Part shown: piece by piece, positions 5,460 to 21,888 of the stretch
Layout: each line of letters opens with the position of its first letter
How positions within the stretch are numbered: the stretch's first letter is position 1
IMG/VR virus record: IMGVR_UViG_3300045136_000429
Direction: 5' to 3' (one strand)
Length of the DNA stretch: 37,322 nucleotides
Source of the DNA: a virus
Translations under genes and position numbers: made by a program
The notes under the pieces: generated by a model
Database searches by the model: none
What the model was told of the DNA's origin: nothing
Seen by the model: the letters and a program-made list of their open reading frames with translations, nothing else

Positions 5460-5476
5460 ACAAAAGAAGGCGTCAC
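5460..5476 (-). promoter_or_regulatory. Late intercistronic motif copy 1 (GTGACGCCTTCTTTTGT on the minus strand)
   Basis: Exact 17-mer. Lies 2 nt after the tail-fibre TAG stop and 15 nt before the ATG at 5444. Confidence 0.8.
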
Positions 5477-5477
5477 G

Positions 5478-6998
5478 CTACGACCACGCAAAGGTCTTCG
5501 TTATGCCGTTCGGGAGCCTCGCTTTGAGGAGCTCGCCCTCGAACCAGATGTAGATGCCGCCCGAGGGGTTGCCCGATGCGGAGCCCTGGGCCAGGTAGAT
5601 CACGTTCGTAGATCCGCTCCCGATCATCTCGGCGTTCTCGAACAGCGAGAGGCCGCGCGACGTGAGATAGAAGCCATTCGCCCCGCCCGCGGCGGCGTAG
5701 ATCGCGTTGTTCATCACGTCGATGCTCGACGACCCGTCCTGAATCTTGGTGCCGAACGAGCTGAGCTCGATCTTCAGCGCGCCGGCGCGCTGGAGCGTGA
5801 TGGTGCTCGTCGCGTTGATCGTCAGCGTGCTGCTCAAGGTCATACTCCCGACAACACCGCGTGCGTGCCAGTCGGTGAGCGTCGAGCCAAATGTCCACGC
5901 GTCCCCGGAGCCCCACGTGATTGCCGCCGCGTCGCTACCGCCGGACGTTCGGCCAACGACAACGAGGGTGCTGACACCACCGTTGTATGGCACGCGCACG
6001 TAGCCGGACGATGCTGGCGTTCCGCCACCGAGCGAGATGAAGCTCCCGCTCCCGCCCATGAATCCGGTGCCGATCGTCCAGTTCGACGCCGCGCCGAGCG
6101 CGCCGCTGCTGTTGATCAGCGGGTTGCCCGTCGAGCCGGGGAGCGCCGTGACGCCGGTGCCGCCCTTGTTGATGGGCAGCGTCCCGGTCGTCATGCTGCT
6201 GTTGAGGCTGATCGCGTCCCACGTGATCGTCCCGCTGCCGTTCGTAGTGAGGACCGTGTTCGCGCTGCCGGCCGCGAGCTTGGTGACGGTGATGCCGGCG
6301 TTGTTCGCCACGTGCGCGTTCGTGATCTGCACGAACGAGTTGCTCGATCCGTTGCTCGTCAACACCGTGTTGGCCGAGCCGGGGGCAAGCTTCGTCACGG
6401 CGATCGCGGCGTTGCTCGCCACATGCGCGTTCGTGATCTGCACGAACGTACCTCCGCTTCCGCTGCTGACGAGCACCGTGTTCGCGCTACCCCACGCGAG
6501 CGCGTTGGGGTCGAACGATCCGCCCGTGACGGTGGCGAGCCCAGAGCCGGAGACCGACGGGCCTCCGCCGCCGCCGCTCGCGGAGATCGTCACCTCGTTG
6601 GTGCCAGTGGAGATCGTGACGTTCGATCCAGCCTTGAGCGTGCGGAATGGGAGGTTCACGCCGCTCTTGGGGAGAGCGAGTTCCCCCTCGCCCGAGCCGA
6701 CGTTGCTCGTCGTGTTTGCCTCGCCCGGAGGCGGCATCGGACCAAGGTTCTTGAGGCCGCCGGCGCCGTCGAGGCCGACGACGTCGTTTGCGTTGCCGGC
6801 GGGGATCTCCGGCCCGTCACCGCCTCCGCTCGCGGAGATCGTGACCTTCGTCGCCTCCGTTGCCGGATCATCCTCGACATCGATCTCGACGCCGTCGCCC
6901 TCGATGAGCTCGATGACTGGGCGCTGCGGGTAGTTGACGCCCAGCTTGCGCAAGATCCAGGGCCCGAGGATAGTGCCGAGCCAACCCCAACGCGCCAT
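5478..6998 (-). CDS. Tail fibre protein with 37-aa tandem repeats
   Basis: GSANTVL(x)S(x)GS(x)FVQITNAHVA(x)NA(x)I(x)VTKLA(x) is repeated about 2.5 times (111-nt DNA period near 6313 and 6424). Gly/Ser/Thr-rich. Sits after the baseplate genes. Confidence 0.8.
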   Translation of the reverse strand: MARWGWLGTILGPWILRKLGVNYPQRPVIELIEGDGVEIDVEDDPATEATKVTISASGGGDGPEIPAGNANDVVGLDGAGGLKNLGPMPPPGEANTTSNVGSGEGELALPKSGVNLPFRTLKAGSNVTISTGTNEVTISASGGGGGPSVSGSGLATVTGGSFDPNALAWGSANTVLVSSGSGGTFVQITNAHVASNAAIAVTKLAPGSANTVLTSNGSSNSFVQITNAHVANNAGITVTKLAAGSANTVLTTNGSGTITWDAISLNSSMTTGTLPINKGGTGVTALPGSTGNPLINSSGALGAASNWTIGTGFMGGSGSFISLGGGTPASSGYVRVPYNGGVSTLVVVGRTSGGSDAAAITWGSGDAWTFGSTLTDWHARGVVGSMTLSSTLTINATSTITLQRAGALKIELSSFGTKIQDGSSSIDVMNNAIYAAAGGANGFYLTSRGLSLFENAEMIGSGSTNVIYLAQGSASGNPSGGIYIWFEGELLKARLPNGITKTFAWS

Positions 6999-7001
6999 CG
7001 A

Positions 7002-8048
7002 TCAGCTCCCCGTCTTCCGGTAGAAGAAAATGCGGCAGCGGCCGCTACCGCCGTTGCCACCCGCGCCGCCGTTCACGCTCCCCGAAGACGACGCGCCTGC
7101 GGCGCCACCGCCGCCACCGCCCGCGCCGCTGCCGGCCACTGCGGACGCACCCGCGCTCCCCGACGTACCGGCGCCCGCGTTGTTCGCGTTGCCTCCGTTG
7201 CCTCCGTTGGCGCCGTGGCCGTAAGGGCCTGCCCCTCCGCCGCCGCCGCCGCCGCCGCCGAGGTACGAGCTCGCGTTGAGCCCCGTGTCACCGCAGACCC
7301 CTCCGATGAAGCCCTGCGGCGAACCCCCTCCTCGTTCGTTGAGGAGGAATGCATGCAGACCGTTTCCGCTGCGCCCGCGCCCACCGACGTGCGGGGCGTT
7401 CGCAACGTGAGCGCAAGCGTCGGTTGAATGGCTGAACGCCACGAGCGCCCCGCGGACCGGCGGTCCGCCCATCGCGACCGCGTAGTAGTGCAGGCTGCCC
7501 CCATTGGCGTTGTCGATGTCGAGCAACGCCACCTCGTTGAGGTTCGAGCCAGCCGATCCGCCTCCTGCGCCACGAGCGAGCGCGAGCACCGTACCTCCAC
7601 GCTTGATCACGGTGTCGCCGCCGTCGCCGCCATTGGCGGGCATGGGACCGCTCGCGGCGCCGACTCCGCCCGCTCCGATCTCGACGGTGAGCGTCTCGCC
7701 CGCGACTACCTCGATGATGCCCACGGCGAGGACCGCCCCTCCGCCGCCGCCGCCGCCGCACGACAGGCGGTCGGAGCCTGCGGCCGGCCCGCCGCTTCCA
7801 CCACCACCGCCGCCGCCGCACATCTCGTAGAGGGCGTGCGTCGCGCCTGGAGGCACCGTCACCGTGTCGTTCGCCGTGAGCTCGATGGGAGCAGACAGCT
7901 TCGGGAGCTGGTCGTACAGGAACGCCGTCCGATCGGCGAGCGTCTCGATGCTCGGATTGAACGAAGACGCTTGCGGAGGCGTCTCGTCCGAGACAAGCGG
8001 CACCGTCGCCGGCCACGAAGCGGGATTCCCAGGGACGTTTGCGCTCAT
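7002..8048 (-). CDS. Glycine-rich tail/baseplate-distal protein (fibre-associated)
   Basis: VTVPPGATHALYEMCGGGGGGGSGG followed by several poly-Gly blocks, as in glycine-rich-domain phage tail proteins. Start at 8048 with an ATGA overlap. Confidence 0.6.
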   Translation of the reverse strand: MSANVPGNPASWPATVPLVSDETPPQASSFNPSIETLADRTAFLYDQLPKLSAPIELTANDTVTVPPGATHALYEMCGGGGGGGSGGPAAGSDRLSCGGGGGGGAVLAVGIIEVVAGETLTVEIGAGGVGAASGPMPANGGDGGDTVIKRGGTVLALARGAGGGSAGSNLNEVALLDIDNANGGSLHYYAVAMGGPPVRGALVAFSHSTDACAHVANAPHVGGRGRSGNGLHAFLLNERGGGSPQGFIGGVCGDTGLNASSYLGGGGGGGGGAGPYGHGANGGNGGNANNAGAGTSGSAGASAVAGSGAGGGGGGAAGASSSGSVNGGAGGNGGSGRCRIFFYRKTGS

Positions 8049-8830
8049 AGCTGATCGAACTCCCAATAACGAAAGTTCAGATTCCGACTCGGAATCCGAT
8101 TCCCGGAGCCGTCGTCCTTGCTCCAGTAGCCCCACTGCCCATCAGGAAGTCCGACGTTGCTTTCTGGGTCGAGCTCCGAGGGGTCGTCCACCCAGATGAC
8201 GCAGCGAACGAAGTTGTGCGCGTTCTTCCACTGCTTGAGCAGTGCAATCGCCTGATCGGACTCCGTCACCGGAACGTTGTGCCCGAGCCCGTATCCAGGA
8301 TCGAGCGCGGTCCAGTCCGGCACGTGTTGGTACGCGGCGCCGTAGACGATCACCCAGATGTCCGTCGGCCGCTCCGTCGCAGCGTTCGGATGCGAGACGC
8401 TGTCCCAGTCCCACGGCGCCGTGAACGTGCGGAGGTTCCCGACCGTGTCGATCTCCGTCCACTGACCGTGCCGATCGACAACACGGACCATCGGGCGCGA
8501 GAGCAGGTACTCGTGCAGCGCGCGAGCGATCGCCTCGTCGGACCCCATGCGCCGGTACCTGTCCAGCCATCCGCGCAGCCGAGCGGCATACTCCTCGTCC
8601 GTGTCGGAGAGGCCTCGGACGATTCCGCGCGTGGCGCCGATCTCACGCAGCGCCGTCGGCGTTCCGCGCCCAGGCCATGCCGCCTGGATTCCCTCGAGCA
8701 GGGCATGAATCAGCGCGTCGCACATGAGCGCGCTCGTCCAGAGGTATTTGGCGGCGAGCTCGAACTTCGGCCGGTAGCTCAGCCACCAAGGCACAATCCG
8801 GTCGATGCCGTCGATCAGCCGCCCAGCCAT
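8045..8830 (-). CDS. Baseplate/tail protein, P2 gpI / Mu gp48-like by position
   Basis: Immediately follows the J-like baseplate gene with a TGATG overlap. Size 261 aa. Assignment is mainly positional. Confidence 0.55.
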   Translation of the reverse strand: MAGRLIDGIDRIVPWWLSYRPKFELAAKYLWTSALMCDALIHALLEGIQAAWPGRGTPTALREIGATRGIVRGLSDTDEEYAARLRGWLDRYRRMGSDEAIARALHEYLLSRPMVRVVDRHGQWTEIDTVGNLRTFTAPWDWDSVSHPNAATERPTDIWVIVYGAAYQHVPDWTALDPGYGLGHNVPVTESDQAIALLKQWKNAHNFVRCVIWVDDPSELDPESNVGLPDGQWGYWSKDDGSGNRIPSRNLNFRYWEFDQL

Positions 8831-9972
8831 CACGCCGCCCGCACCTGAACGGAGCCCGCCCACGTGGCGACCGAGTCGGGCGCAAGGGGAAGATCCGACT
8901 CGTCGTCAAGATCGACGTCGAACACCGATGGGTGCACCCTGCACGCCGCCTTCACCCAGTCGGCGTAGAGCGCGCCGAGCGCGTGCGGCGGCTTCCGGAT
9001 TCCGCCGATGGGATACGTCGAGATCCCTTCGGCGATCGCCTGGAACGCCTGCGCTCGCACCCCATCGAGGTCGAGGCCGTTCGTGCGACGCACCCAGATC
9101 GTCACCGTGCGATCGAACGGGACGACGTTGGCCGCAGCGACCTCGACCTTGATGCCGGACGGTCGCGCCATCGCCTCGATGGCCTCCTCTGCTGCGGCAA
9201 TGTCGTTCGCGATCGGAGCTCCCGACGGACTCGCGAGTGTGACGCTCACGATCGCGTCCCACGAGCCCTCGGGGACGTGTACACGGTTGATCGCCGTCGG
9301 CGTGCCGTCGAGCCGCCGAGCCTGGCGAACGGCCCACTCGTACGCGCCACGAGGACCGAGATCGCTAATGCTGGCGAGCTTCGCTCGACACGCGAAGCGT
9401 AGCTCCTCGTCGGTCTCCTCGTTGAGCCCAACGACGGCCTCCTCGTTCGTGACCTCGACACCGAGAAGAGACGTCTCGATCGAGTCGATGTCACCGGCGG
9501 CTGCCCACGAGTCGCGCCCGACCTCGACCGCGACAACCTCGAGCTTCTTCGTCTGGAACGGAGCGAGGTCGAGCGGCTGCGAGTTGAAGTACCGCTTTCC
9601 AGTGCGGGACGCGTAGAAGCGCACGCTGCCGGGCGGATAGTCGCCCGGCAGGAACGAGCCGCCTCCGGTGTTCGTGAGCGTCACGAATCCGCTCGCCGGC
9701 TGCGCGGCTCGCCTCTCGACACCGAAGACGTACCAAGCCAACAGCGTCAGCCACGGACCTTCGGCGTGGTCGAGGAAGCCGCAGCGGATCGCGTTGTACA
9801 TGATCTCCGTCAGGCCGGAGAACGTCATCGCCTGCGCGCGCTGCAGCACGCGCAGCACGCCGCCCTTGCGGAACTTCGTCACGTCGACGCCGAGCCGAGT
9901 CAGGACGGAGTCGAACTTCGCCATGTACTCGTCCGGCGTGACGCGCTGAAGGAGAGCGTCGAGAGGGATCAT
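8830..9972 (-). CDS. Baseplate J-like protein (Mu gp47 / P2 gpJ-like)
   Basis: 380 aa, located between the W-like and I-like genes with ATGA overlaps. The true start is MIPLDALLQRV; the Arg-rich N-terminal extension in the ORF track is rejected. Confidence 0.65.
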   Translation of the reverse strand: MIPLDALLQRVTPDEYMAKFDSVLTRLGVDVTKFRKGGVLRVLQRAQAMTFSGLTEIMYNAIRCGFLDHAEGPWLTLLAWYVFGVERRAAQPASGFVTLTNTGGGSFLPGDYPPGSVRFYASRTGKRYFNSQPLDLAPFQTKKLEVVAVEVGRDSWAAAGDIDSIETSLLGVEVTNEEAVVGLNEETDEELRFACRAKLASISDLGPRGAYEWAVRQARRLDGTPTAINRVHVPEGSWDAIVSVTLASPSGAPIANDIAAAEEAIEAMARPSGIKVEVAAANVVPFDRTVTIWVRRTNGLDLDGVRAQAFQAIAEGISTYPIGGIRKPPHALGALYADWVKAACRVHPSVFDVDLDDESDLPLAPDSVATWAGSVQVRAA

Positions 9973-10352
9973 CGGACGATCCCTCCTTCGACCGTCCCAT
10001 CCGCGCTTACGTCGTATCCGAGATGCAGAAGACCGTCGGTGGTCGTGATCTCGATGTCGACGTGAGCGGTCACGCCTTCGTTTCCGACGCCTCTGCGCTC
10101 GACGCGAGCGACACACGTCAAGGCGCGCGGGTCCTTCAGGATGTCCGCCTCGATGAGGCGGCCGATCCTGATCGGATCGTCGCTACCGGAGAGCCTCGAC
10201 AGGAGTCCCACGCCGCGGTCCTCGTCGTCCGGGTTGCTCCCGTAGTCCTCGAGGAGGCGGTGGTAGACGTCCTGCGCGAACAGATCGAGCTCGTCGTTCG
10301 TCTCGGACGCGAATTCGTCGAGGTCGTCCAGGCAGACGAGGTCCACGACCAT
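9969..10352 (-). CDS. Baseplate wedge protein, gpW/gp25-like (Mu gp46-like) by size and position
   Basis: 127 aa acidic protein directly upstream of the J-like gene. ATG at 10352 lies 8 nt after late-motif copy 2. Confidence 0.55.
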   Translation of the reverse strand: MVVDLVCLDDLDEFASETNDELDLFAQDVYHRLLEDYGSNPDDEDRGVGLLSRLSGSDDPIRIGRLIEADILKDPRALTCVARVERRGVGNEGVTAHVDIEITTTDGLLHLGYDVSADGTVEGGIVR

Positions 10353-10360
10353 CCGCCCGA

Positions 10361-10377
10361 ACAAAAGAAGGCGTCAC
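10361..10377 (-). promoter_or_regulatory. Late intercistronic motif copy 2
   Basis: Exact 17-mer. Its TGA (10376-10374) is the stop of the hub gene. Confidence 0.8.
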
Positions 10378-11528
10378 GCTGAGCGCGTCTTCATCGCGGC
10401 GAGCTGGGCTTGGATCTGCGCCACGTCGGCCTCGATCCCTGGATACGGCGCCGTCGCCGCACCATTGTGCGCCGCGTTCACCTTCCGGATGAGATCGAGC
10501 ACGGCCCCGATCACGTCCGCGTTCGCGGTCGGCTTCGCCGCCTCGCCGCCGAGTTTGAGCACCGTGAAGTCCCACGTGGCCTCGAGCGGACTGGCGCCGT
10601 CGAAACCGAGGACGACAGGCGTCCGCCCGACGAAGCCGACGAGAACCTTCGCCCCTGGCTTCGCACGACACGTGAAGCCGGGCACACCGGGCCAGTGCAG
10701 AACCGGCGTCGCGTCAGGGACAGGACCTCGGACCTCGCTTTGCAGGAGGTACCCTCCGTCCGCCGTCTGACCCACGACCGTGTAGACGTGGAGGGTGAGC
10801 AGCTCCGGACGGATAGCGCTGATCGCGAGCGCCTGGATGGCGTGCGCGAGACGCGGCCCCTGCGTCTCCGTTGCCGTCGTCTCGCCCATCCAGAGCGACG
10901 CCGATGCGCCCTCCTCGCTCCACGTCTGCGTGACCTCGCGCACGCGCATCGCGCCGCCGGGAAGGCGAGGATCCGCAATGACGGTCCCCGGCATGATCGG
11001 AGCCGAGCTCGCCGCCCGCGCGATGCGAGAGAGCGGATCCCACTCCGACAGGTGAAAGTCCGTCCCCGGGGCGCTCGGCGGACGCGGCCCCACCGTCGTG
11101 ACTCCCTCCGGGCTCACCCACCATCCCGCGCGTCCGAGCACCTGCGAAGCCGGGCCGGCAACGCGCGTGTAGTGCTCTCCGATCCGTTCCGGCGCGACGA
11201 CGGTTGCCGCGATCCCGAGCTCCGCCGCCGTCGCCGAGATCACGACCGACGACGTCAGCCCCGCGGGGTTCGAGAAGTGCCTTTTCGGCAGCGACCTCGA
11301 CCACTCGAGCGCGCCGACGACGCGGCACCGTGCGCGCGTCCCGAAGGCGCCCGACGACGACGAGTCCACCGTCCCGACGAACGGCACGCCGCCGACCACG
11401 CACGTGACCTTGCCCGTCGGCGGCGGCGCGCCCGTCGGAAGATCGTGGTCGACCTCGAGCACCCACGATCCGGACTCGGGAACGTGCAACGTGCACGACG
11501 TGATGAGATGCGGCCCGATCGTGTTCAT
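10374..11528 (-). CDS. Baseplate hub / central spike protein (gpV / Mu gp45-like C-terminal region)
   Basis: 384 aa. The C-terminal VPGFTCRAKPGAKVLVGFVGRTPVVLGF resembles the gpV spike OB-fold. Located between the tape measure region and the baseplate wedge genes. Confidence 0.55.
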   Translation of the reverse strand: MNTIGPHLITSCTLHVPESGSWVLEVDHDLPTGAPPPTGKVTCVVGGVPFVGTVDSSSSGAFGTRARCRVVGALEWSRSLPKRHFSNPAGLTSSVVISATAAELGIAATVVAPERIGEHYTRVAGPASQVLGRAGWWVSPEGVTTVGPRPPSAPGTDFHLSEWDPLSRIARAASSAPIMPGTVIADPRLPGGAMRVREVTQTWSEEGASASLWMGETTATETQGPRLAHAIQALAISAIRPELLTLHVYTVVGQTADGGYLLQSEVRGPVPDATPVLHWPGVPGFTCRAKPGAKVLVGFVGRTPVVLGFDGASPLEATWDFTVLKLGGEAAKPTANADVIGAVLDLIRKVNAAHNGAATAPYPGIEADVAQIQAQLAAMKTRSA

Positions 11529-12091
11529 GTTCCACCGCTCGCCACCGCCCTAAGACGGGCGGCCGCCTCCTGCAGCCGGATGTCCTGCTCCGTCATCGGA
11601 CGCGCCGGCGGCTGCTTCTCGACTGCAGGCACGACAGGCTCCGTCTTCTTCGGCACGAACGGAGCCGGTGCGCGGTACTGCAGGAACGAGAGACGCGTCT
11701 GCCACCGCCCCGGAGCGATGAGGCTCCAACCCTCGATCTCTGTAACCTGCACGTTTTGGATGCGGAACGGCGGTTTGATCAGCACGGGATGGTAGACGCC
11801 GAGCGCGGGCGGCTTCACCCCAACTGGCGCCGTCAGGAACACGTTCGCGAACTGATCCCAGAGCGACTCCTTCGACTCGTCCCAGAACTCGAACGTGGCA
11901 TCGAACGCCGCGAGCCCCTCGCCCGTGTACACGCAGAACGCGCCCTGTAGCCCGAAGCCAGGCTTGACGTCCCAATTCCGCTTGAGTTTCGGAGGTCCGA
12001 GCGTCGTCTTGTCGGCAGATACCGCCGCAATCGCGCTGATGGGGTTACCGATGCTGACGACGAGGTAATCGATCTCGACGGAGAACGGCAT
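11525..12091 (-). CDS. Tail/baseplate-associated hypothetical protein (188 aa)
   Basis: Translationally coupled on both sides (TGATG with the tape measure, ATGA with the hub). High GC3. Confidence 0.55.
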   Translation of the reverse strand: MPFSVEIDYLVVSIGNPISAIAAVSADKTTLGPPKLKRNWDVKPGFGLQGAFCVYTGEGLAAFDATFEFWDESKESLWDQFANVFLTAPVGVKPPALGVYHPVLIKPPFRIQNVQVTEIEGWSLIAPGRWQTRLSFLQYRAPAPFVPKKTEPVVPAVEKQPPARPMTEQDIRLQEAAARLRAVASGGT

Positions 12092-13959
12092 CACGTCACC
12101 CCGAGTTGAGCGCCGGTGATCTCGAGCGCGTGCAGGATCTTCTCTACGACGTCGTCGGCGACCTCGCGCGCGACCTCCTTCGGGTCCGACGCGTTGCTGT
12201 ACACGTTGATCTCGCCGATCTGCACCGATCGCGACGAGCTCACGTCACGAACCTGCGAACGCGGGATGATCACCTCTCCGATGCCCACGGACGCGAGCCC
12301 CTCGCCAGCCGCGGGAAGCGGCTTCGTCTCGGCGATCCCGTCCCTCCTGATGCCGGTGACCACGCCGCCGTCAGCGTGCGCCGGAAGCTGCGCGGTTGCC
12401 GGCGCCGAAGACGTCGCGGAGAGCCTCTTGATCGCGCCCGCGATGGCGCCGACCACACCAACGTATCCCTCTCCGACCCACTTCGCCCCCTGCACGGGAT
12501 TTATGGCTAAGGTCGGCAGTCCGAAGATGATTTTCAGGCCCGATTTCACCGTTTCGAGGATCGAGTTGAACTTCTCCGCCGCGGTCCGACCGTCGTTGAA
12601 GGCCGCTTCGATCCGGTTCTTCACGCGGATAATCTCGGTGGCGAGTTTGAGCGAGATGATGATCGCTTCCTTCAGGCCGTACTCGATCCAATCGCCGTTC
12701 TTGTCGAGCGAGTCCCCGAACGCCTTCGCGATGCTCTCGAATAGCGTCTTGAGTGCCTGGCCCGACACGCTCGATTCGTCGAGCGTCCTGTAAATCCGAT
12801 CGAGGAAGCGAGAGATCGGCTCCAGGTTCACGTCCTTGGTGAGAGCGGCGAGTCGCTTGCTGAACTGTTCCGAGACGCGCGAGAGATCCGACAGCTTCCG
12901 CAGGTTCAGCTCGCCGAACCTGTCCTCGACGGCCTTCCGCATCGCCTTGGCGCCGTCGGCGAGCTTCACGCGACCGGTCGCGAGCGCGATGCGAGCCTTC
13001 TCGATCGAGACTCCCATCTGCTTCGCGAGAGCCCCGGCGACGTCGTCGAAGTCGAGCCCCGTGCCGTACATCTCCACCGGGTTGATCTGGAGAACCCCGA
13101 GGCGCTGGTAGCGCGTGAGGAACTCCTGAATCTTCGCGCCGGCCTGGTCTCCGAGCGCCGCCGACGCTTGCCCGACCGCGTTCAGCGAATCGACCAGAGT
13201 CCCGCCGCGAAGCCCGCTCTGACGGAGCTCGATCGCGAGCTTCTCGAGCTCGCGCGTCGCCGTTGGGACCTTCATCGCGAGCGCGTCGACCTGGTCGGCG
13301 AGGTTCCGCGCGTTCTCGCTCGTGCGGACCCAAGCCTGCATCTGCAGCATCGTCTGCTGCCGGCTGCTTGCCGTGAGGACGATCCATTTCGTGAGGCTCG
13401 CCGTCGCCGCTGCGGCCGCGCCAGCGAAGCCGATGCCGAGAGCTACGCTCGCCATCGTCGCCGCGGTGGACAGCGACACGGCGGCGCTCGCAGCGCCCGT
13501 CAGGCTCGCCTTCAGCAGTGCCGCTCGTCCCCCCTCCTGGCTCACGAGCTCGCGGTACTCGCGGAAGCGACCTCGAAGCGCTCCGAGCTTGCCGCCGAGC
13601 ATCCCGTACGCCTTCGCCTCGACAGCCGCGATCTTCTTCGCGAACTTCTCGCGCTCGGCAGCCTCCTTCTTCGCCTGCTTGATGATCGAGGTGATGCTGT
13701 GCCCGTACTTCGCCGCCGACTGCGTCAGCACGGACTGCCGAGCTTTGAGCTGCTCGATCTGCTTCTTCAGGCTCTTCGTGACCTCGGCGTTCCCCTTGCC
13801 GGTCGACTTCAGCGCCGAGTTGAGCTGATCGAGCGCCTTCTTGTTGCGCTCGTACTCCGACGCCATGGCCTTGAGGGCGTCGACGGTCTCGGAGCTAGCC
13901 TCCTGGACGTTGCCGTCGATCGTGACGACCCACTTCGTCTCACGGACGCCACTTGCCAT
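12091..13959 (-). CDS. Tail tape measure protein
   Basis: 622 aa, Ala-rich and helical with a central hydrophobic segment. Directly follows the frameshifted chaperone pair. ATG at 13959 preceded by AGAGGA. Confidence 0.8.
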   Translation of the reverse strand: MASGVRETKWVVTIDGNVQEASSETVDALKAMASEYERNKKALDQLNSALKSTGKGNAEVTKSLKKQIEQLKARQSVLTQSAAKYGHSITSIIKQAKKEAAEREKFAKKIAAVEAKAYGMLGGKLGALRGRFREYRELVSQEGGRAALLKASLTGAASAAVSLSTAATMASVALGIGFAGAAAAATASLTKWIVLTASSRQQTMLQMQAWVRTSENARNLADQVDALAMKVPTATRELEKLAIELRQSGLRGGTLVDSLNAVGQASAALGDQAGAKIQEFLTRYQRLGVLQINPVEMYGTGLDFDDVAGALAKQMGVSIEKARIALATGRVKLADGAKAMRKAVEDRFGELNLRKLSDLSRVSEQFSKRLAALTKDVNLEPISRFLDRIYRTLDESSVSGQALKTLFESIAKAFGDSLDKNGDWIEYGLKEAIIISLKLATEIIRVKNRIEAAFNDGRTAAEKFNSILETVKSGLKIIFGLPTLAINPVQGAKWVGEGYVGVVGAIAGAIKRLSATSSAPATAQLPAHADGGVVTGIRRDGIAETKPLPAAGEGLASVGIGEVIIPRSQVRDVSSSRSVQIGEINVYSNASDPKEVAREVADDVVEKILHALEITGAQLGVT

Positions 13960-15134: not shown

Positions 15135-16598
15135 TCAGATATTGAAGCTCCGGACGAAGCGGCTCGTCACGGCAATCCCCTTGATGTAGACGAGGCTCGA
15201 AATCTCGATGGTCGCCGTCACGATGGCGCCGTCGTTGGAGCCGACGTCGTCGACGCGCGACAGAGTCAGCCGCACGTCGTCCACCTCGCCACGCAGCACG
15301 GACTTGAGGTCGAGCGTGCCGCGTTGCTCGATCTCGGCCACGTCGGCCTCGAGCAGATACACCTCTCCGTTCGGGCCGGGCTTCGGGTCCTTGCGCTTTC
15401 GCGAGCTCAACTCCTCAGTGAGGAAATCCCACGATCGCTCCTCGGCGACGCACATGCATCGCTCCTGTTGATCGAACACGTAGTCCGAACCGATTGGCGA
15501 GAACACGCGCGGGTTGCCGATGAAGGCGCCAGCACGGCGCGGGAACGTACGCAGCGTCACGTATCCGAGATCGTCGAGCCCCGGCGTCGCGTCCTCGTCC
15601 CAGCAGACGGGCGTTCCGTCGTCGTCGACGATCGCGAATCCGTCGACCGGCCCGTCTGCTACGTAAGCGGCGTCCGTGCCGATGCTGATCTTGGCGATGC
15701 GGCCAGCGAGCGCGAGCGACGTCGGCCGCCACATGCTGATCCCACGGATCGGCGAAGCGACGTACCCACCGTCCGCGCAGACGTCGACGCGCGTGCCCGT
15801 CCTCGCCGCGTTGCTGATGACCTCGAGCTCGTCGATGTAGTCCTGTGCCGACTCGTCGTCGGGCTGGTACGGACGCACGTTCAGGATCGCGCGCTTGCTG
15901 AGCCCGCGAGCCATGAATCCGTTCAGCGCGGTGCGGACGCCATTGATGATCGTCGCGTCCGCCTCGACGGACCCGATCAGGATGGCCTCGTACTGCAGCC
16001 CGGTGTTCTTGAGCGCCTCGAGGCACGGGAGCAGATCCGGCAGCGACGCCTTCGGACCCGTCGTCGTGAAGGCGACCGACTGACCGTCGGCGATGTCTCC
16101 TGCGCCGAGCTCGATCGTGATGCCCGTGTCCGGGATGACGATCTCGTCGTCCGTGCCGAGCGCCCGATCTGCGGAGAACGTCTTGCCGCCGTCGAGGCTC
16201 ACGGCGTAGCGGATGCCGGCCGCACCGACCGTTCCGCCCTTCGGGAATCGGATGACCACGCGGAATCGGTCGATCGGCTTCGTCGAGCCGGCGGTGATCG
16301 TCGCCGCGCCAGCCTGCGGCGCACCGGTCACGTCGATCGTGCTGTACGCCCCGTCCGTCGATGCGTCGCACTTGACGAGCACGACGGGCTTGCGACCGAC
16401 CTCGAGCATGTATGCTCCGAGCTCGGAGAGCTCGCCGTGACCAAACGAGGCGAGCGCCTGCGCCTTCGTCGTCGCGATCGTCGGCTTGGCCGGGACTCCG
16501 GCCGCCGATGCCGCGATGATCGCGAACGTTCCTATGGGCGAGGCCCGTCCAGCGCCCGTGTTGCCGTCGGCGCGCTGATACGTCAGGCGGGGCAGCAT
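15135..16598 (-). CDS. Contractile tail sheath protein (Mu gpL/DUF2586-like)
   Basis: 487 aa, sheath-tube-chaperone-tape measure gene order. ATG at 16598 lies 14 nt after late-motif copy 3. Confidence 0.75.
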   Translation of the reverse strand: MLPRLTYQRADGNTGAGRASPIGTFAIIAASAAGVPAKPTIATTKAQALASFGHGELSELGAYMLEVGRKPVVLVKCDASTDGAYSTIDVTGAPQAGAATITAGSTKPIDRFRVVIRFPKGGTVGAAGIRYAVSLDGGKTFSADRALGTDDEIVIPDTGITIELGAGDIADGQSVAFTTTGPKASLPDLLPCLEALKNTGLQYEAILIGSVEADATIINGVRTALNGFMARGLSKRAILNVRPYQPDDESAQDYIDELEVISNAARTGTRVDVCADGGYVASPIRGISMWRPTSLALAGRIAKISIGTDAAYVADGPVDGFAIVDDDGTPVCWDEDATPGLDDLGYVTLRTFPRRAGAFIGNPRVFSPIGSDYVFDQQERCMCVAEERSWDFLTEELSSRKRKDPKPGPNGEVYLLEADVAEIEQRGTLDLKSVLRGEVDDVRLTLSRVDDVGSNDGAIVTATIEISSLVYIKGIAVTSRFVRSFNI

Positions 16599-16612
16599 GC
16601 CTATCTGGCGGC

Positions 16613-16629
16613 ACAAAAGAAGGCGTCAC
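16613..16629 (-). promoter_or_regulatory. Late intercistronic motif copy 3
   Basis: Exact 17-mer within an identical 19-mer. Its TGA (16628-16626) is the stop of the upstream gene. Confidence 0.8.
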
Positions 16630-17159
16630 GGTTCGCGCACGATGTTCGGCGAGAGCGGGCCTGTGAGGTCCCACGGGACATCGATCACGTGCGTGCGCAG
16701 CGTGAACGTCAGTTTCAGCTCACGGCCAAGCTGCGTGAGCGTCTCCGGACGCGTCCACGTCGTATCGCCGAACGTGTGATGCCCGTCGCTCGCGTTCGTG
16801 ATCGCGCGCATCGCCCACTGCATGAGCCGGAACGTCGCGCTGACTTGATCCTCCTCGGAGGTCTTGTCCGTCGCCCAGACGTAGCAGGCGAGATCGATCT
16901 CCCAACACGCCAACGGGCGCCATGCTTGCGTCTCGGTGACGCGCACGCCTGGACCCTTCGGCGGAAGGATCCTTCCTCCGCGGCCACCCTCATCGGACGG
17001 CGCGACCACGATGCGGTTTCCGCCCGCTCGCGTGCCCTGCTTCGGGCGCTGCAGCCAGCCGGCGAGGAACTCGGCGTCGACCTGATGCGCCTCTAGGTAG
17101 GCGCGCATGCGGTCGACGAACACCGAGAAACCAGACTCAAGAGTGATCTCCGACGGCAT
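16626..17159 (-). CDS. Tail completion / neck protein (177 aa)
   Basis: Lies between the head-tail joining genes and the sheath gene. ATG at 17159 preceded by GGAGGG. Confidence 0.55.
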   Translation of the reverse strand: MPSEITLESGFSVFVDRMRAYLEAHQVDAEFLAGWLQRPKQGTRAGGNRIVVAPSDEGGRGGRILPPKGPGVRVTETQAWRPLACWEIDLACYVWATDKTSEEDQVSATFRLMQWAMRAITNASDGHHTFGDTTWTRPETLTQLGRELKLTFTLRTHVIDVPWDLTGPLSPNIVREP

Positions 17160-17160
17160 G

Positions 17161-17568
17161 TCACCCTCCGAGCTTGCGTTGGCGCACGCGCTCGATCGCG
17201 CGCTCGATCGCCTCGATCGCTTCCTTCGGCTCCGGGTCGCCCTGCACGAACGGGAGGATCTGCCGGCGCGGGCGGTTCTCACGATGGCCCATCATCCGAT
17301 TCTGAAAGAACGCGCCGTTCGACGGCGACGCGAGCTTGACGACGAAGCTCGCGCCCGACACGGTGACGGATAGCGCGCTCGAGACGTCTGCGTAGGGCGT
17401 GCCGTCCTTGCGCGGCGCGAAGGGCTTGCCCTCGATGTCGCGGCCGGCGGCGGTCTTCTCTCGCAGCGCTCTCAGCGCGTCGTTGGCCGCCTCCTTCGCG
17501 ATCTCCTCGGGCGCCGTGCCGAGAGCCTCGATCTGCTCGATGAGCTCGCGCAGGTCCGCCACGATCAT
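17161..17568 (-). CDS. Head-tail joining / virion morphogenesis protein (135 aa)
   Basis: The true start is MIVADLRELIEQ at 17568 with an ATGA overlap. The upstream part of the tracked ORF is Arg/Gly-rich nonsense. Confidence 0.55.
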   Translation of the reverse strand: MIVADLRELIEQIEALGTAPEEIAKEAANDALRALREKTAAGRDIEGKPFAPRKDGTPYADVSSALSVTVSGASFVVKLASPSNGAFFQNRMMGHRENRPRRQILPFVQGDPEPKEAIEAIERAIERVRQRKLGG

Positions 17569-18026
17569 CGCCTCCCGCGCATCGTCCGGTGCCAGTCGAT
17601 CGGCGAGCGGAACGAGAACGCGCGAGCCCTCCGCCTCGACACGCCGTCCTCGTCCTGCTTGCCAGGCTCCGGCTCGCGAAGAGGAAGCTCGACGAGTCCG
17701 TCCCGCGCGTTCGCTGCCTTCGAGAGCCACTCGATCGCCTCGTCCCGTGCCTTCACGATCTCGCCGTCTTGCTGGCTCGACGGATCGAAGCCGATGAAGA
17801 TACGGATCTGGTACGAGAGGATCTGAGCGGCGTGGAACTTTACCGCCTCGGGCACCGGATCCTTGAAGGGCGTGGCGTACCGCTTGAACAGGTACGAGTC
17901 GATCAGGCGAGACACCGCCTCCGACATCGCCTCGAAGCGCCCAGGGTGCTTGTCGACGAAGTCGTCGAGTTCCGCGTCTGGGATCGAGCCCATGACGCGA
18001 AAGTATGCGATGTCGACATACGCCAT
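17565..18026 (-). CDS. Head-tail connector protein, DUF1320 (Mu gp36-like)
   Basis: MAYVDIAYFRVMGSIPDAELDDFV is typical of the N-terminus of the DUF1320 family. First gene after the capsid gene. Confidence 0.65.
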   Translation of the reverse strand: MAYVDIAYFRVMGSIPDAELDDFVDKHPGRFEAMSEAVSRLIDSYLFKRYATPFKDPVPEAVKFHAAQILSYQIRIFIGFDPSSQQDGEIVKARDEAIEWLSKAANARDGLVELPLREPEPGKQDEDGVSRRRARAFSFRSPIDWHRTMRGRR

Positions 18027-18044
18027 CTGCGCCCTCTAATGACA

Positions 18045-18078
18045 ACGGCCCGCGCCGGTCGGACCGAACGCGGGCCGT
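18045..18078 (-). terminator. Strong GC hairpin (10-bp perfect stem, 14-nt loop) downstream of the major capsid gene
   Basis: ACGGCCCGCG (18045-18054) pairs with CGCGGGCCGT (18069-18078). No clear U-tract follows, so it may attenuate transcription or stabilise the mRNA rather than terminate fully. Confidence 0.45.
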
Positions 18079-18097
18079 CGCGGTCAGATCGCGCCCG

Positions 18098-19036
18098 TCA
18101 CTGGCAGATGCAGCGCTGCGCGAGGTACGGGTGACCGAGATACGCGGTGAGGTCGCCGGTCACGAGGTACTCGAGCTCCTGCATGCGAGCCAGCTCGGGC
18201 ACCGTGAGCCCGTCGAAGTTCGTCATCGTCATCGGGATAAGCGTCGAGATCCCGAACGGACGCGCGAACGCGCCGCCTCCCTCGAGCTCGCCGACGACGA
18301 TCCAGACGTCCTTGTTGCCCACCTGCTCGAGCCCCGGCACCTGCACCGGGGTGATGTCGTACGAGCGCCGGATGATGTTCTCGGTCGTGCCGTTCGAGGT
18401 CCCGAAGAAGGCCGCATTCGTCGCCACGTGCGCCTTGTACTTGAGGGACGGGGGATGAAGCAGCCACTTTGCGCGAAGCGCGCGAGGCGTGCCGTCGGGC
18501 ATCCTTCGGTCTTCGATCTGCGAGGCCGCCCAAGCGAGATTCTCCGGCGTCAGATCACGGCCCGCCTCCGTATTGGAGTAGACGCCCTGCGTGTTGTCCC
18601 TGTAGTTGTTGAAATGCCCTGTGTGCCAGAACGGGAGTCCGTCGTACGCCTTCGCGCTCTGGTCGTTGATGAGCTGCAGCAGCAACTTCTGCGGCAGCAG
18701 CGCGGCGGAGGCACCGAGACCAGCCGCAGCATCGGTCTTGATCTGCAGCGCGTTCTGCGTTTTGAAGTCGCGGTCTCGCACGACGAAACCACCGCCGGCC
18801 TGCTCGTGCTTGATCGCCATCCCGTGGGTCTTGAGGTCCGAGTACTCGATGCCCGGACCGACCCGGATCCGGATGTCCTCAACCAGGAACTCCCGGAGGT
18901 CGGCGACTCCGGCCCCCTCCACCTCGTTGGCGACGATGCTCGCCCAGCGGTTCTTGAGGGCGTTGTCGTAGCTGGCCTGATAGACGCTCTGCAGCGTCTT
19001 GTTCAGGGCCATCACGTGTTGCATCGGGGTGAACAT
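18098..19036 (-). CDS. Major capsid protein (Mu gpT-like)
   Basis: 312 aa, following the scaffold and decoration genes. GGAGACGGAGAG lies upstream of the ATG. Flanked by the largest intergenic gaps in the late operon. Confidence 0.8.
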   Translation of the reverse strand: MFTPMQHVMALNKTLQSVYQASYDNALKNRWASIVANEVEGAGVADLREFLVEDIRIRVGPGIEYSDLKTHGMAIKHEQAGGGFVVRDRDFKTQNALQIKTDAAAGLGASAALLPQKLLLQLINDQSAKAYDGLPFWHTGHFNNYRDNTQGVYSNTEAGRDLTPENLAWAASQIEDRRMPDGTPRALRAKWLLHPPSLKYKAHVATNAAFFGTSNGTTENIIRRSYDITPVQVPGLEQVGNKDVWIVVGELEGGGAFARPFGISTLIPMTMTNFDGLTVPELARMQELEYLVTGDLTAYLGHPYLAQRCICQ

Positions 19037-19100
19037 CTTTCGTCTCTCCGTCTCCGTGGAGGGTGAGGTTCGGACTCCGACTCTTCGTCAGAGATCAGAG

Positions 19101-19496
19101 TCAGAGGGGGAGGATCACGCGGACGCGACCGTCGGCCTCGACGCCCGAGATCGTTCCCGCAAGCACCGCGTCCTCGCTCGTGAGCGACACGGTCTTGGGG
19201 TCCGCGCCCACGTAGCAGGGCTTCGTGACGTCCCTCAGACCGATCCCGGAGCCGGCGAAGAGGTACTCCTTCTGCCCGCGCGAGAACTCGATCGTGACCC
19301 ACACGTCGCCGTCGTTCCCGGCCGTGTTGTCGGCGTCCTCAATCGCGACGCCGAAGACCGTCCCCGAAACGCCGGGACCGGGCGCGGGGGCCGGCTCCGC
19401 GCAGCCGCTTGAGTTGATTACGACCGTGTCACCGGCGGCGATCCTCTCGCCGCCGGCAACCGGAACGATGTCCTTGTCCGTTCGGATGAAGCCCAT
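19101..19496 (-). CDS. Head decoration/cement-type protein (DUF2190-like)
   Basis: 131 aa. Its position between the scaffold and capsid genes and its Gly/Val-rich beta composition fit DUF2190-type proteins. Confidence 0.55.
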   Translation of the reverse strand: MGFIRTDKDIVPVAGGERIAAGDTVVINSSGCAEPAPAPGPGVSGTVFGVAIEDADNTAGNDGDVWVTIEFSRGQKEYLFAGSGIGLRDVTKPCYVGADPKTVSLTSEDAVLAGTISGVEADGRVRVILPL

Positions 19497-19506
19497 CGTG
19501 CTCCCC

Positions 19507-19962
19507 TCACTTGCTCAGGTTGCGGAGCGTGTTCCGAGCGGCCGCCTCGATCGCCATGATCGTGGCGTCCTTCGGAGCCGGCGGATCCACGCGCGGGATG
19601 ACCGTCGGCCTCGACGCCCGCTTCGCGAGGCCGATCGACGAAGCCTTCTCGAGCTTCGCCACTCGCTCGGTGAGCGACTTGATCGTCGCGAGCGCGGACG
19701 CGAGCTCCTTCGACGGCTCCTTCTCCTCCTCGCTCCCGCCGGACTCCGACGACGTCGTCGGCTCGCCCTCCGACGTGTTCGCCTTCTCCTCGGACGACTC
19801 CGAGGACTCCGACGCCTGCGTCTCCTGCTCCTGCGCTTGCTGCGCGTCGAGCAGCGAATTGAAGTACGCGGACAGCTTGTCGAGCGCCGCCGCCTTCGCC
19901 TCGTCGGAGGCGGACGCGTCGACGAGGGTCGCAAGCGCCGCGATCAGCTCCTTCGGATCCAT
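19507..19962 (-). CDS. Scaffolding protein
   Basis: 151 aa, acidic Ser/Glu-rich and helical. Lies between the protease and capsid genes. ATG lies 15 nt after late-motif copy 4. Confidence 0.65.
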   Translation of the reverse strand: MDPKELIAALATLVDASASDEAKAAALDKLSAYFNSLLDAQQAQEQETQASESSESSEEKANTSEGEPTTSSESGGSEEEKEPSKELASALATIKSLTERVAKLEKASSIGLAKRASRPTVIPRVDPPAPKDATIMAIEAAARNTLRNLSK

Positions 19963-19977
19963 CACCTGGATCGGCGC

Positions 19978-19994
19978 ACAAAAGAAGGCGTCAC
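19978..19994 (-). promoter_or_regulatory. Late intercistronic motif copy 4
   Basis: Exact 17-mer within an identical 19-mer. Its TGA (19993-19991) is the protease stop. Confidence 0.8.
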
Positions 19995-20566
19995 GATCTC
20001 GAGCGAAGCTGCAGCACGCGAAGCTTCGCCATCGAGAGAGAAAGCCGTCCGCCCAACGGCGACACGGACATCGCGGACGCAAGCGCGGGGATGCCGTGAG
20101 TCCTCGGGTTGTTCGTCAGCGCGCAGTTCACGTACGAGATGACTTCACGCGTTTTCTCCTCGACGTAGAAACACGGCGAGAAGTACCGCCACTCCGGCGG
20201 GTCCGCCTCGAGCCCGGCGCGCGCCTCGTCCGTCCACGTGCACGACACGGCCCAGAGCTCCGGCTTGCCGTTCTCGTCCTCGCGCACCTCGAGGACGTGC
20301 CAACCAGCAGCCTTCGACGCTTCGGGCGGCGCGTCCGGCATCATCGACCGGTGGTCGAAGTCGAAGCTGTAGATCCGACCGCGCTCGTTCTGCTCCTTGA
20401 TGAGGAGCTCCGCCGACCGCTCCGAGAACACGAACGGTTCCCCACCGTCGCACGCGTTCGGCCCGTACGCCCAGATCCGGAACGCCGTCGGCGCCTTCCC
20501 CGGACCGGGGCGCTCGACAAGCGGTCGCGCGGCGGCGAGCTCGGAGATCGCAAGAATCGACCTCAA
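19991..20566 (-). CDS. Prohead protease (Mu gpI-like)
   Basis: FRIWAYGPN ... FDFDHRSMM ... ASKAAGWHVLEVRED ... WRYFSPCF follows the Mu-like protease I pattern. TTG start with GGAGGTG 6 nt upstream and a TTGA overlap with the portal stop. Confidence 0.75.
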   Translation of the reverse strand: MRSILAISELAAARPLVERPGPGKAPTAFRIWAYGPNACDGGEPFVFSERSAELLIKEQNERGRIYSFDFDHRSMMPDAPPEASKAAGWHVLEVREDENGKPELWAVSCTWTDEARAGLEADPPEWRYFSPCFYVEEKTREVISYVNCALTNNPRTHGIPALASAMSVSPLGGRLSLSMAKLRVLQLRSRS

Positions 20567-21849
20567 GACACACCTCCGGTGATCGGCACACCGAACTTAC
20601 GAGCCATCGCGGCGACGTCGACTCGCTCGGGGGCGCCGCTCGTCACGAGCGCGTCGAGCCACTTCTTCACCGCGTCGCCGCCGACGTTCACGGCGTTCGC
20701 CTCCGACGCGAGATCCTTCGGCGGCGTCGCGTCCCATCGCACGCGCGGTCGGTGGAACCAGCCATCGAACGAAAATCGTCGCTGCGCCCAGACAGGGATC
20801 ACCTGCTCGTTCAGCGCGGACGCCATCGTCTCCGCGTCGCCACGGATGAGGTCGTGCTTGACCTTGGCGAAGACGCTATTGTTCGCGAAACCGGTGCCCG
20901 GCTCGGTGGTTCCACGCTGGCCGGAGATCGCGAATATGACGTCCTCCTTCGATGCCTCGAGCTGGTCCTTCATCGAGCTGGGCGTCGTCTGCGACGGGTG
21001 CTCGAGATCGAACTGCCATCCCTCGTTCAAGAGGATGGCCGGGAACGGGCCGAAATGGTTGATCGCGTCGAACGTCTCGCGGACCTCGTCCTCGTTCGCG
21101 CCGTTCGGGACCGTGAGCTTCTTGATCGGGAACGCGAGGGAGTTGTTCCAGGCGCCCAAGTTGAGGAACGCCTGCCTACGTGTGACGTAGGCGAACGCGA
21201 GAGCGCGCCAAAGGCCGTACCTCCACGGGTAATCCGACCCATGCGGGAACGCGAGCAGCCATCGGCCATCGCCCGGCGTCACCGGCTCCTGCTCGCCGTA
21301 CGCCGTGCGGACGTACCACTGATTTTCGCTGAATCGGTACGTGAGGAACTCGGGGTTCCTTCGAACGAGACGAAGCCGTCCGTCCTCGTCCTCGAGGATC
21401 TCCCCGAACATGATGTTCAGGAGCCCGCCGTCACGAGCGATCAGGCTAAGTTCCGACGCCGGGCATAGCGTGTCGAACTCGCGCGAGAGCGCGATCGCGT
21501 ATTCCTCCGCCGGACGCATTGACCCTCGGTACGGTCGACCGTCTGGCGCCTCTTCCACGCTCGCCTCGAAGTACCGAGGCAGGTGGAGCATGCCATCGAA
21601 GCGCGTCGACAGCTCTCCCGCGATCAGGCCGTCGCCGATCAGCGTGTCGGCGATGCGGCCGATCATCTGCATGTTGCCCGTCTCGGCGACGGCCAGCGCG
21701 GCGTCGATGTCCGGGATGTCCCAGTCGACGTACGTGGGCATCCACGGCGTGAGGTTCAACGCGCGCTTGCCGCGTCCGCCCTTCTTGACCTCGCGCGGAC
21801 CCTGCGAACCTCGCACGAAGTTCAGGAATCGACGGACGACATTGGGCAT
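20563..21849 (-). CDS. Portal protein (Mu gp29 / DUF935-like)
   Basis: 428 aa, between the large terminase and protease genes. Confidence 0.8.
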   Translation of the reverse strand: MPNVVRRFLNFVRGSQGPREVKKGGRGKRALNLTPWMPTYVDWDIPDIDAALAVAETGNMQMIGRIADTLIGDGLIAGELSTRFDGMLHLPRYFEASVEEAPDGRPYRGSMRPAEEYAIALSREFDTLCPASELSLIARDGGLLNIMFGEILEDEDGRLRLVRRNPEFLTYRFSENQWYVRTAYGEQEPVTPGDGRWLLAFPHGSDYPWRYGLWRALAFAYVTRRQAFLNLGAWNNSLAFPIKKLTVPNGANEDEVRETFDAINHFGPFPAILLNEGWQFDLEHPSQTTPSSMKDQLEASKEDVIFAISGQRGTTEPGTGFANNSVFAKVKHDLIRGDAETMASALNEQVIPVWAQRRFSFDGWFHRPRVRWDATPPKDLASEANAVNVGGDAVKKWLDALVTSGAPERVDVAAMARKFGVPITGGVS

Positions 21850-21871
21850 GAGGCTTCATGCGTCCGGTGTT

Positions 21872-21888
21872 ACAAAAGAAGGCGTCAC
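21872..21888 (-). promoter_or_regulatory. Late intercistronic motif copy 5
   Basis: Exact 17-mer. Its TGA (21887-21885) is the terminase stop. The portal ATG lies 22 nt downstream. Confidence 0.8.

Follow-up and report, generated by a model that had tools for sequence, protein, structure and literature searches.

What does a 17-nt sequence do that occurs five times in a phage genome, each time in the same orientation and each time in a gap between two late genes? The question is raised by IMG/VR record IMGVR_UViG_3300045136_000429, an entire metagenome contig of 37,322 bp and ~68% GC (hereafter, the window), which carries a Mu-type morphogenesis operon on the minus strand from ~24,870 down to ~3,546. 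The sequence reads ACAAAAGAAGGCGTCAC on the plus strand and GTGACGCCTTCTTTTGT on the minus strand, which is the coding strand of the operon. A preliminary description of the contig had noticed the repeat and offered three roles for it: a module-specific late promoter, a translational signal or an RNA-processing site. We find that the element is real and strongly selected. Judging by its sequence and setting, we put the probability at roughly 40% that it is an intercistronic site for translation restart or enhancement in the late polycistronic mRNA.

Exactly five copies of the 17-mer are present in the window. All five lie on the coding strand, in intercistronic gaps of the late operon; no additional site was found in the window on either strand at three or fewer mismatches, and 100 dinucleotide shuffles of the window produced zero matches. 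Copy 1 (21872-21888; all copies are on the minus strand) contains the stop codon of the large terminase, TerL (TGA, 21885-21887), and is followed by the portal ATG at 21849-21847. Copy 2 (19978-19994) includes the protease stop (TGA, 19991-19993) upstream of the ATG of a scaffold-like gene (19962-19960), copy 3 (16613-16629) the tail-completion stop (TGA, 16626-16628) upstream of the sheath ATG (16598-16596), and copy 4 (10361-10377) the stop of a gene for a 384-aa protein in the hub position (TGA, 10374-10376), upstream of a 125-aa W-like gene whose start is, by homology, a GTG at 10346-10344. Copy 5 (5460-5476) separates the last gene of the fibre module (stop TAG, 5478-5480) from the gene of a 204-aa membrane protein (ATG, 5444-5442). 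These positions, the single orientation, the 19-mer CGTGACGCCTTCTTTTGTG reached by three of the copies (5460, 16613 and 19978) and the use of the motif's own TGA as the upstream stop in four of them (TerL, protease, tail-completion and hub) all agree with the preliminary description. The fibre TAG, which had been placed 2 nt before the motif, is 1 nt away.

The start codon follows the end of the 17-mer after 22 nt for the portal, 15 nt for the scaffold-like protein, 14 nt for the sheath and 15 nt for the membrane protein. For the W-like gene the distance is 8 nt to an alternative in-frame ATG at 10352 or 14 nt to the GTG. All five distances reported previously were reproduced, but the 8 nt among them refers to the ATG, and it is the GTG that aligns with the start in related phages. 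The preliminary description also placed each copy at one of the few late junctions without an overlap. These are not the only such junctions: about nine further late junctions have gaps, mostly of 3-10 nt, and longer motif-free gaps are found before the capsid gene (64 nt), after it (71 nt, with a hairpin) and before the tape-measure gene (nominally 225 nt).

We searched for the element in related phages, as the preliminary description had suggested. Nine independent related contigs were identified through homologues of the portal and tube proteins (51-76% identity; contigs of 24-130 kb), and up to 10 kb on each side was fetched, giving, with the window, ten contigs and ~202 kb. One of them comes from a metagenome-assembled genome of Labilithrix sp. 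(Myxococcota). All nine relatives carry the same element, (T)GAC(G/A)(C/T)(C/T)TTCTTTTG, on the coding strand at syntenic junctions: terminase-portal, protease-scaffold, tail-completion-sheath and hub (or a small inserted open reading frame, ORF)-W-like gene, with a fifth, between the variable fibre module and the gene that follows it, where the locus extends that far. Across the ten contigs the octamer TTCTTTTG occurs 39 times, and all 39 occurrences are at late junctions on the coding strand, with none antisense or elsewhere; by our calculation from base composition, ~0.8 would be expected by chance. Each genome has 4-5 copies. The preliminary description of an oriented, intergenic signal at module boundaries is borne out by these syntenic copies, and the distribution is not that of a generic scattered repeat, one of the two outcomes it had named as refuting its proposal.

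The terminase-portal copy is present in all nine relatives, although it is degenerate in L018 and has one substitution in L015 (L numbers designate individual contigs). The protease-scaffold and tail-completion-sheath copies are likewise present in all nine. At the latter, L010 has a TAG stop (TAGCACTTTCTTTTG), which shows that TGA is conserved mainly for its role as a stop and that recognition centres on CRYY-TTCTTTTG with its T-rich tail. The hub-W-like copy is found in every relative that reaches this junction (L013 and L015-L020), with a small extra ORF between the hub gene and the motif in L018 and L019. Equivalents of the copy at the fibre-module end were found in L013 (19719) and L018 (19507), where the downstream protein is 59% identical and unrelated, respectively, to that of the window. 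The heptamer TTCTTTT is unchanged in 38 of 39 copies picked by core similarity and in 39/39 octamer matches. The flanking proteins are only 43-77% identical between the window and its relatives, and the columns upstream of the stop codon in the aligned motif instances are almost free of information (<=0.55 bit per column). Selection has therefore constrained the element far more tightly than the neighbouring genes. It should also be noted that the copies in L018 (5173, 8516, 14995 and ~19537) resemble one another as far as the start codon, with ATCAGGC or ATCAAGC just before ATG or GTG, and in that genome the whole cassette is uniform beyond the core.

A more distant Mu-like group (143 IMG/VR loci, portal ~35% identical) has neither the motif nor any other repeated T-rich element, showing that the element is clade-specific. 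At the one junction checked in that group, upstream of the sheath gene, we found plain Shine-Dalgarno sites or 4-nt overlaps, suggesting that the ancestral state there was a plain ribosome-binding site and not a promoter-sized gap. Among the matches listed for IMG/VR, the exact 17-mer gave five single matches, four in one unrelated sequence of 46-47% GC and one in a 63% GC contig, and no second copy in the contigs concerned. The 14-mers ACGCCTTCTTTTGT and ACACCTTCTTTTGT gave, again among the matches listed, a single match per contig, and a second TTCTTTTG was absent from all 5 GC-rich contigs with a 14-mer match. With the listed matches single in each contig, a generic host or viral repeat was rejected. 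We found no description of this element; an Rfam scan returned no family and a tRNA scan no tRNA, and, among the matches listed, the exact 17-mer turned up elsewhere only as those single matches in viral contigs, in keeping with the original impression that it is not a described element.

The motif is one part of a cassette whose order is stop TGA, CRYY, TTCTTTTG, often an extra TTT, a G-rich stretch and the start codon. Its consensus is TGACRYYTTCTTTTG, which lacks AGGAG, and its invariant core, written as RNA, is UUCUUUUG. A typical cassette spans 27-30 nt, and the gaps overall 27-35 nt. The stop codon stands exactly 4 nt from the octamer in 33 of 37 cases, and the start codon mostly follows 15-16 nt after the G of the octamer, placing the motif at about -16 to -24 from the start. 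It thus ends upstream of the Shine-Dalgarno position, which it had been thought to occupy, and leaves ~12-15 nt that are G-rich and Shine-Dalgarno-like in many relatives. Where insertions separate the stop from the motif (L016, L015 and L019), the motif keeps with the start, at the usual distance in three of four such cases; at the portal junction of the window it stays beside the stop, and the distance to the start is 8 nt longer. At the remaining late junctions, the genes overlap by 4 nt or are separated by short gaps that hold good Shine-Dalgarno sequences, with the exception of the gap after the capsid gene. This gap contains a strong GC hairpin and a weak U tract in the window (18046-18066, minus) and in L013, L016, L018 and L020, likely an attenuator or an mRNA-stabilising 3' structure.

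Start codons that follow the motif have weaker anti-Shine-Dalgarno pairing (mean -4.6 kcal/mol, 28 sites) than the other gapped starts (-8.2 kcal/mol, 53 sites; Mann-Whitney, p = 9e-6) or overlapping starts (-7.5 kcal/mol, 68 sites; p = 2e-4). When 39 instances were folded, there was no conserved hairpin or shared stem, and no conserved local structure joined the motif to the Shine-Dalgarno or start region. The core was unpaired in most of the minimum-energy folds, and the predicted accessibility of a 12-mer over the core had a median rank near the 97th percentile along the late mRNA. A U-rich tract, predicted to be unstructured, directly 5' of the ribosome-binding site, as is characteristic of S1-type enhancers, is therefore a feature of these junctions.

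Taken together, the spacing, the weak Shine-Dalgarno sequences, the accessibility and the gene order suggest an mRNA element that provides a fresh start, or a restart, where translational coupling falls short. On general grounds of virion stoichiometry, portal, scaffold (then capsid) and sheath (then tube) proteins are expected in more copies than the terminase, the protease and the tail-completion protein encoded before them. In the mechanism we propose, the chain of coupling through 4-nt overlaps and short Shine-Dalgarno gaps would be interrupted at five places by the 27-35 nt cassette. The U/C tract would form an unpaired island within highly structured RNA of 68% GC, and would hold or recruit the small ribosomal subunit immediately 5' of a weak ribosome-binding site. 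Recruitment could occur through an OB-fold protein that binds single-stranded pyrimidines, either ribosomal protein S1 or a cold-shock-domain protein, for which TTCTTTT is the best-known heptamer. The downstream gene might then be translated independently of its poorly translated upstream neighbour, and probably more strongly. Of the three roles offered in the preliminary description, the translational one (a U-rich S1-type enhancer or termination-reinitiation) fits best with the stop and start spacing, the weaker downstream Shine-Dalgarno sequences, the predicted unpaired state and the sheath junction of the distant relatives. Action on RNA, reading by an OB-fold protein and a step-up in translation are all three things that we infer.

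Two described systems resemble parts of this mechanism. The E. coli manXYZ operon has a uridine-rich, S1-dependent enhancer upstream of the manY Shine-Dalgarno sequence (10.1101/808485), which is likewise a U-rich single-stranded tract upstream of the ribosome-binding site and whose boost was shown experimentally for manY only. That enhancer is a single site with loose sequence needs, whereas here an invariant octamer occupies five junctions in a phage clade. The cold-shock protein CspB of B. subtilis binds GTCTTTG/T, with C strongly preferred at position 3, and TTCTTTT served as its positive-control oligonucleotide (PMC1904285). The invariant TTCTTTT(G) of the motif equals this oligonucleotide and carries the C that CspB requires as third base, along with T at positions 2, 4 and 6; such a requirement would account for the invariance of the C in the motif. 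The match to CspB is one of sequence alone, and no role for Csp proteins has been described at intercistronic sites of phage operons.

Several observations weigh against a translational role. To our knowledge, S1 does not require an invariant octamer, and the perfect conservation of TTCTTTTG suggests a more sequence-specific reader than S1. The phage has no cold-shock, S1-like or other RNA-binding gene detectable with Pfam or PHROGs. The spacing is not absolute, as the distance from stop to motif breaks in four cases and that from motif to start in about four. Predicted accessibility falls below the 85th percentile at 5 of 34 sites, and low GC content trivially accounts for part of the high values elsewhere. 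Weak Shine-Dalgarno sequences are also expected if transcripts began just upstream of these genes, and the five positions resemble the late promoter sites of P2 and Mu. Finally, TTCTTT fits TTNTTT, the pause motif that NusG recognises on DNA (PMC9963633).

A bolder version of translational control would make the cassette a dedicated, sequence-specific ribosome restart signal. A single-strand-binding protein of host or phage would read UUCUUUUG beside the stop codon, and the 30S subunit would be passed to the weak-Shine-Dalgarno start ~16 nt on, setting the protein ratios of the 20 kb virion operon. We regard this version as doubtful. By analogy, such a restart signal could be the bacterial-virus counterpart of viral termination-reinitiation elements or of elements resembling internal ribosome entry sites.

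If the motif acted on DNA instead, it might be a compact late promoter of a single element, like T4 late or T7-type promoters, from which a phage-directed RNA polymerase would make five module transcripts with very short leaders. We consider this unlikely, though together with a pause site it is one of the two main rivals. Mu and P2 late promoters, which combine a -10 element with an upstream activator site in gaps of >70 bp, are found at the same genome positions, before portal, scaffold, sheath, baseplate and lysis genes; here the gaps measure 27-35 nt, and the sequence upstream of the motif is not conserved. No activator site of the Mu C or P2 Ogr type (dyad symmetry upstream of a -10) was found, upstream columns again carrying <=0.55 bit in these 27-35 nt gaps, and neither strand of 3000-22900 has a sigma-70-type promoter (-35/-10 hexamers at 16-18 nt spacing). 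Of the promoter role suggested in the preliminary description, the Mu-type, activator-dependent form thus finds no support, and only a compact, -10-like form stays as a rival. No -10-like hexamer is conserved after the motif.

The compact form accounts for the strict orientation and the restriction to the late region, and very short or absent leaders would fit the weak Shine-Dalgarno sequences downstream. The hairpin after the capsid gene might also create a need for fresh transcription of the sheath and tube genes. The stop codon inside the motif recalls the T4 late promoter TATAAATA, which is similarly short, forms a locally AT-rich spot and often contains the upstream stop. T4 late promoters need gp55 and gp33, however, and no RNA polymerase, gp55-like, gp33 or complete sigma gene was detected in the phage. 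Furthermore, a start site 6-8 nt past the motif would cut the G-rich, Shine-Dalgarno-like stretch of many relatives, the head of the late operon has no motif copy, and the sheath gene of the distant relatives, the one junction checked, is preceded only by a Shine-Dalgarno site or an overlap. In favour of a promoter, the protein whose gene immediately precedes TerL has a sigma-region-4-like domain; against it, that gene occupies the position of a small terminase, beside a cos-like repeat region. This 228-aa protein (p229; 23606-24292, minus) gave a confident all-helical model (predicted local distance difference test, pLDDT, 80) in which a domain of ~60 residues superposes on sigma factor region 4 (1rio_H, template modelling score, TM, 0.85) and the remainder has no structural match. 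The model did not identify a reader of the motif.

To a similar degree, we doubt that the motif is an RNA polymerase pause site read on non-template DNA, either the NusG-dependent TTNTTT or the consensus elemental pause (R at -10, T at -1, G at +1). The purpose of such a pause would be to let a trailing ribosome catch up or an elongation factor load, sparing the 20 kb operon premature termination. The TTCTTT contained in every copy equals -11 TTNTTT -6, the T residues of which are critical, and the residues of NusG that make the contact are reported to be widely conserved (PMC9963633). The motif is also asymmetric, co-oriented with transcription and located in an untranslated stretch before a gene, its hairpin-free, U-rich hybrid favours pausing over termination, and pauses of this kind in 5' leader regions regulate the genes downstream (PMC9963633). 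Yet TTNTTT has a free N and no G, whereas both C and G are invariant in 39/39 copies of a motif that is longer and stricter, bears a CRYY prefix and is tied to stop and start codons. A pause predicts neither the fixed 4-nt stop offset nor the weak downstream Shine-Dalgarno sequence. The cited study showed NusG-stimulated pausing in Gram-positive bacteria only (PMC9963633), a Myxococcota NusG may not promote pausing, and a search of the phage revealed no paralogue of NusG or RfaH. Compared with the boxA consensus of gamma-proteobacteria, GYTCTTTAANA (PMC5725501), which may not be the boxA of the host, the motif agrees at 6 of 10 specified positions in its best register (YTCTTT only), and boxA was rejected.

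Processing by an RNase E-type endonuclease, the third of the roles first suggested, would cut the late transcript into module mRNAs of differing stability. A predicted accessible, single-stranded, U-rich segment at module boundaries suits this idea, and the putatively stabilising hairpin that follows the capsid gene would be a sign of differential mRNA decay in the operon. However, an invariant octamer with CRYY exceeds what cleavage needs, given the degeneracy of RNase E-type sites. With the fixed relation to stop and start left unexplained and no protective hairpins flanking the motif, processing seems quite improbable.

Very little speaks for a stoperator-like roadblock, in which a phage repressor or other DNA-binding protein would silence the late genes in the lysogen. 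The phage is temperate (it encodes an integrase), and the stoperators of L5 and Cluster A phages are, like the motif, asymmetric, oriented with transcription and located in short intergenic gaps, with stop overlap. They number ~24-36, however, are spread genome-wide and share their consensus with the early-promoter operator, whereas the motif has only 4-5 copies, all in the late operon, and no operator-like or other related site at <=3 mismatches in the early/immunity region or on the other strand. Stoperators also co-vary with their repressor, and here the core is identical although the regulators differ (the helix-turn-helix, HTH, protein is 46-67% identical between the window and its relatives, and replication modules are swapped). 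In L5, stoperators are 13-bp sequences that act in transcription regulation (PMC3203893).

Recombination linkers without a role in expression, targeting homologous recombination by the phage's RecT-like and PD-(D/E)XK (exonuclease) proteins to module boundaries, are hardly credible despite the boundary positions and the mosaic fibre module beside copy 5, since protein identity to the nine relatives is uniform (~60-75%) across motif boundaries except in the fibre region, with no breakpoints at the motifs, five identical direct repeats per genome would favour lethal deletions, and the strand, stop and start relations would go unexplained.

Other candidate identities were tried and rejected. As to intrinsic terminators (GC hairpin plus U tract), all 14 terminator-like sites in 3000-22900 lie away from the motif copies, and the copies share no stem. 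Pairing with rRNA, as in epsilon or termination upstream ribosomal binding site (TURBS)-like elements, reaches at best a 12-nt run including G-U pairs at E. coli 16S position 1173, which ~10% of shuffled motifs equal; complementarity to E. coli 23S was no better, and the rRNA compared is that of E. coli, not of the host. The 27-30 nt gaps are not consistently in frame, which argues against read-through or frameshift fusion across the junctions. Read on the opposite strand, the AAGAAGG form is not followed by a start codon at a consistent distance, as an antisense Shine-Dalgarno-like start would require. Uniformity of CRYY within a genome could have indicated a co-evolving, phage-specific reader, but the pattern is unconvincing (L016 has CACC throughout and L017 CGTT three times, but L014 and L019 are mixed).

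Of the elements described so far, the Start-Associated Sequence (SAS) of Cluster K mycobacteriophages comes closest. Both are short, asymmetric repeats in one orientation just upstream of the starts of a subset of genes (PMC3203893), as are 39/39 octamers here. Both sometimes include the upstream stop codon, are conserved across subclusters or relatives and are suspected of a role in translation initiation. The SAS, GGGATAGGAGCCC, holds the Shine-Dalgarno core itself, lies 3-7 bp from the start and occurs in 11-19 copies at non-structural genes (PMC3203893). Our motif, in contrast, is pyrimidine-rich, lies 5' of the Shine-Dalgarno position at ~15-16 nt from the start, and occurs in 4-5 copies at the boundaries of structural and lysis modules.

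The protein ratios of phage late operons, which range from a few to hundreds per virion, have mostly been explained case by case, by the strength of Shine-Dalgarno sequences, by attenuators or by promoters. In this operon one short signal, perfectly conserved amid proteins that have diverged to 45-75% identity, marks exactly the junctions at which a step-up in output is expected, in place of a strong Shine-Dalgarno sequence. If translational, the element would be a compact, portable restart cassette for high-GC bacteria. It would then offer a way into the study of Shine-Dalgarno-independent initiation in Myxococcota and might illuminate the start-associated sequences of mycobacteriophages. If it is a promoter or a pause site, it would represent a new recognition sequence for the transcription machinery of Myxococcota.

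The 37 kb contig looks complete and represents a temperate, non-transposing phage with a Mu-type head and tail module. Its late operon, all on the minus strand, begins with the HTH protein, the 228-aa protein and TerL (phrog_2 match), followed by the portal (PF06074), the Mu-like protease (phrog_328 match), the scaffold-like protein and the major head protein. A gp36-like adaptor, the sheath (phrog_907 and DUF2586 matches) and the tube come next, then the tape measure, the 384-aa hub-position protein, the 125-aa W-like gene and a J-like wedge protein. The operon ends with the fibre genes, the 204-aa membrane protein and a glycoside-hydrolase-like protein. Genes for integration and replication include a tyrosine integrase, a DnaC-like loader and RecT-like and PD-(D/E)XK proteins. 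Phages in culture are only very remotely related, the nearest being Thermus phage Riverbug and Myxococcus phage Mx4 (sheath identity 27-29%), and megablast against cultured phages gave no match. Searches with the tube protein returned one near-identical copy of the window each from metagenome contigs and from genome contigs. Replication modules are swapped between the window (25,500-29,700) and L006, L007 and L009 (1-6,700). The window encodes a DnaC-like loader, a replication-initiator-like protein and the integrase, and the other three encode a D5-type primase, a DEAD helicase and an HNH/methyltransferase instead. The morphogenesis operon with its motif is conserved.

A conserved non-coding element lies upstream of the late operon, at ~25,400-25,560 (minus) in the window and at ~6,890-7,030 in L006, 6,560-6,650 in L007, ~6,720-6,850 in L009, ~85-200 in L017 and 1-110 in L020. 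It consists of a G/C hairpin, ATGGCGGGGAGCC, (C)TTTTTGTGCGCGC and then 3-4 copies of GGTGAC(A/G) in both orientations, and is probably a cos or pac site with binding repeats for the small terminase. Its TTTTTGTG stretch is loosely similar to the motif's 3' end. In L020, an Illumina adapter tail at 1-12 (CTCTTCCGATCT) is fused straight to the conserved CTCGAATTTTTGTG element, which may mark the physical end of the genome. Between the cos-like element and the first late gene, the window has an antisense ORF for a 158-aa lipoprotein-like protein (24926-25402, plus; MRPMRPALVLRSLVSGLC...), which is absent from the relatives and is therefore likely a moron. The cos-like element is preceded by a 52-aa ORF (25544-25702). 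Upstream of this ORF, at ~25,760-25,790 (minus), is a sigma-70-like promoter candidate, TTGACC-N17-CATAAA, which could be the start of late or middle transcription.

Two further observations concern the tail and fibre genes. The two ORFs after the tube gene overlap by 61 nt in L013 (10486-11180), L016 (10474-11153) and L020 (10423-11114), the usual signature of a -1 frameshift in a tail assembly chaperone. In the fibre region, which is the mosaic part of the operon, hairpins with T-rich sites are present in the window at 7032-7051 and 8077-8099 (minus), within the 3' ends of ORFs, and one of them precedes the start of a fibre gene.

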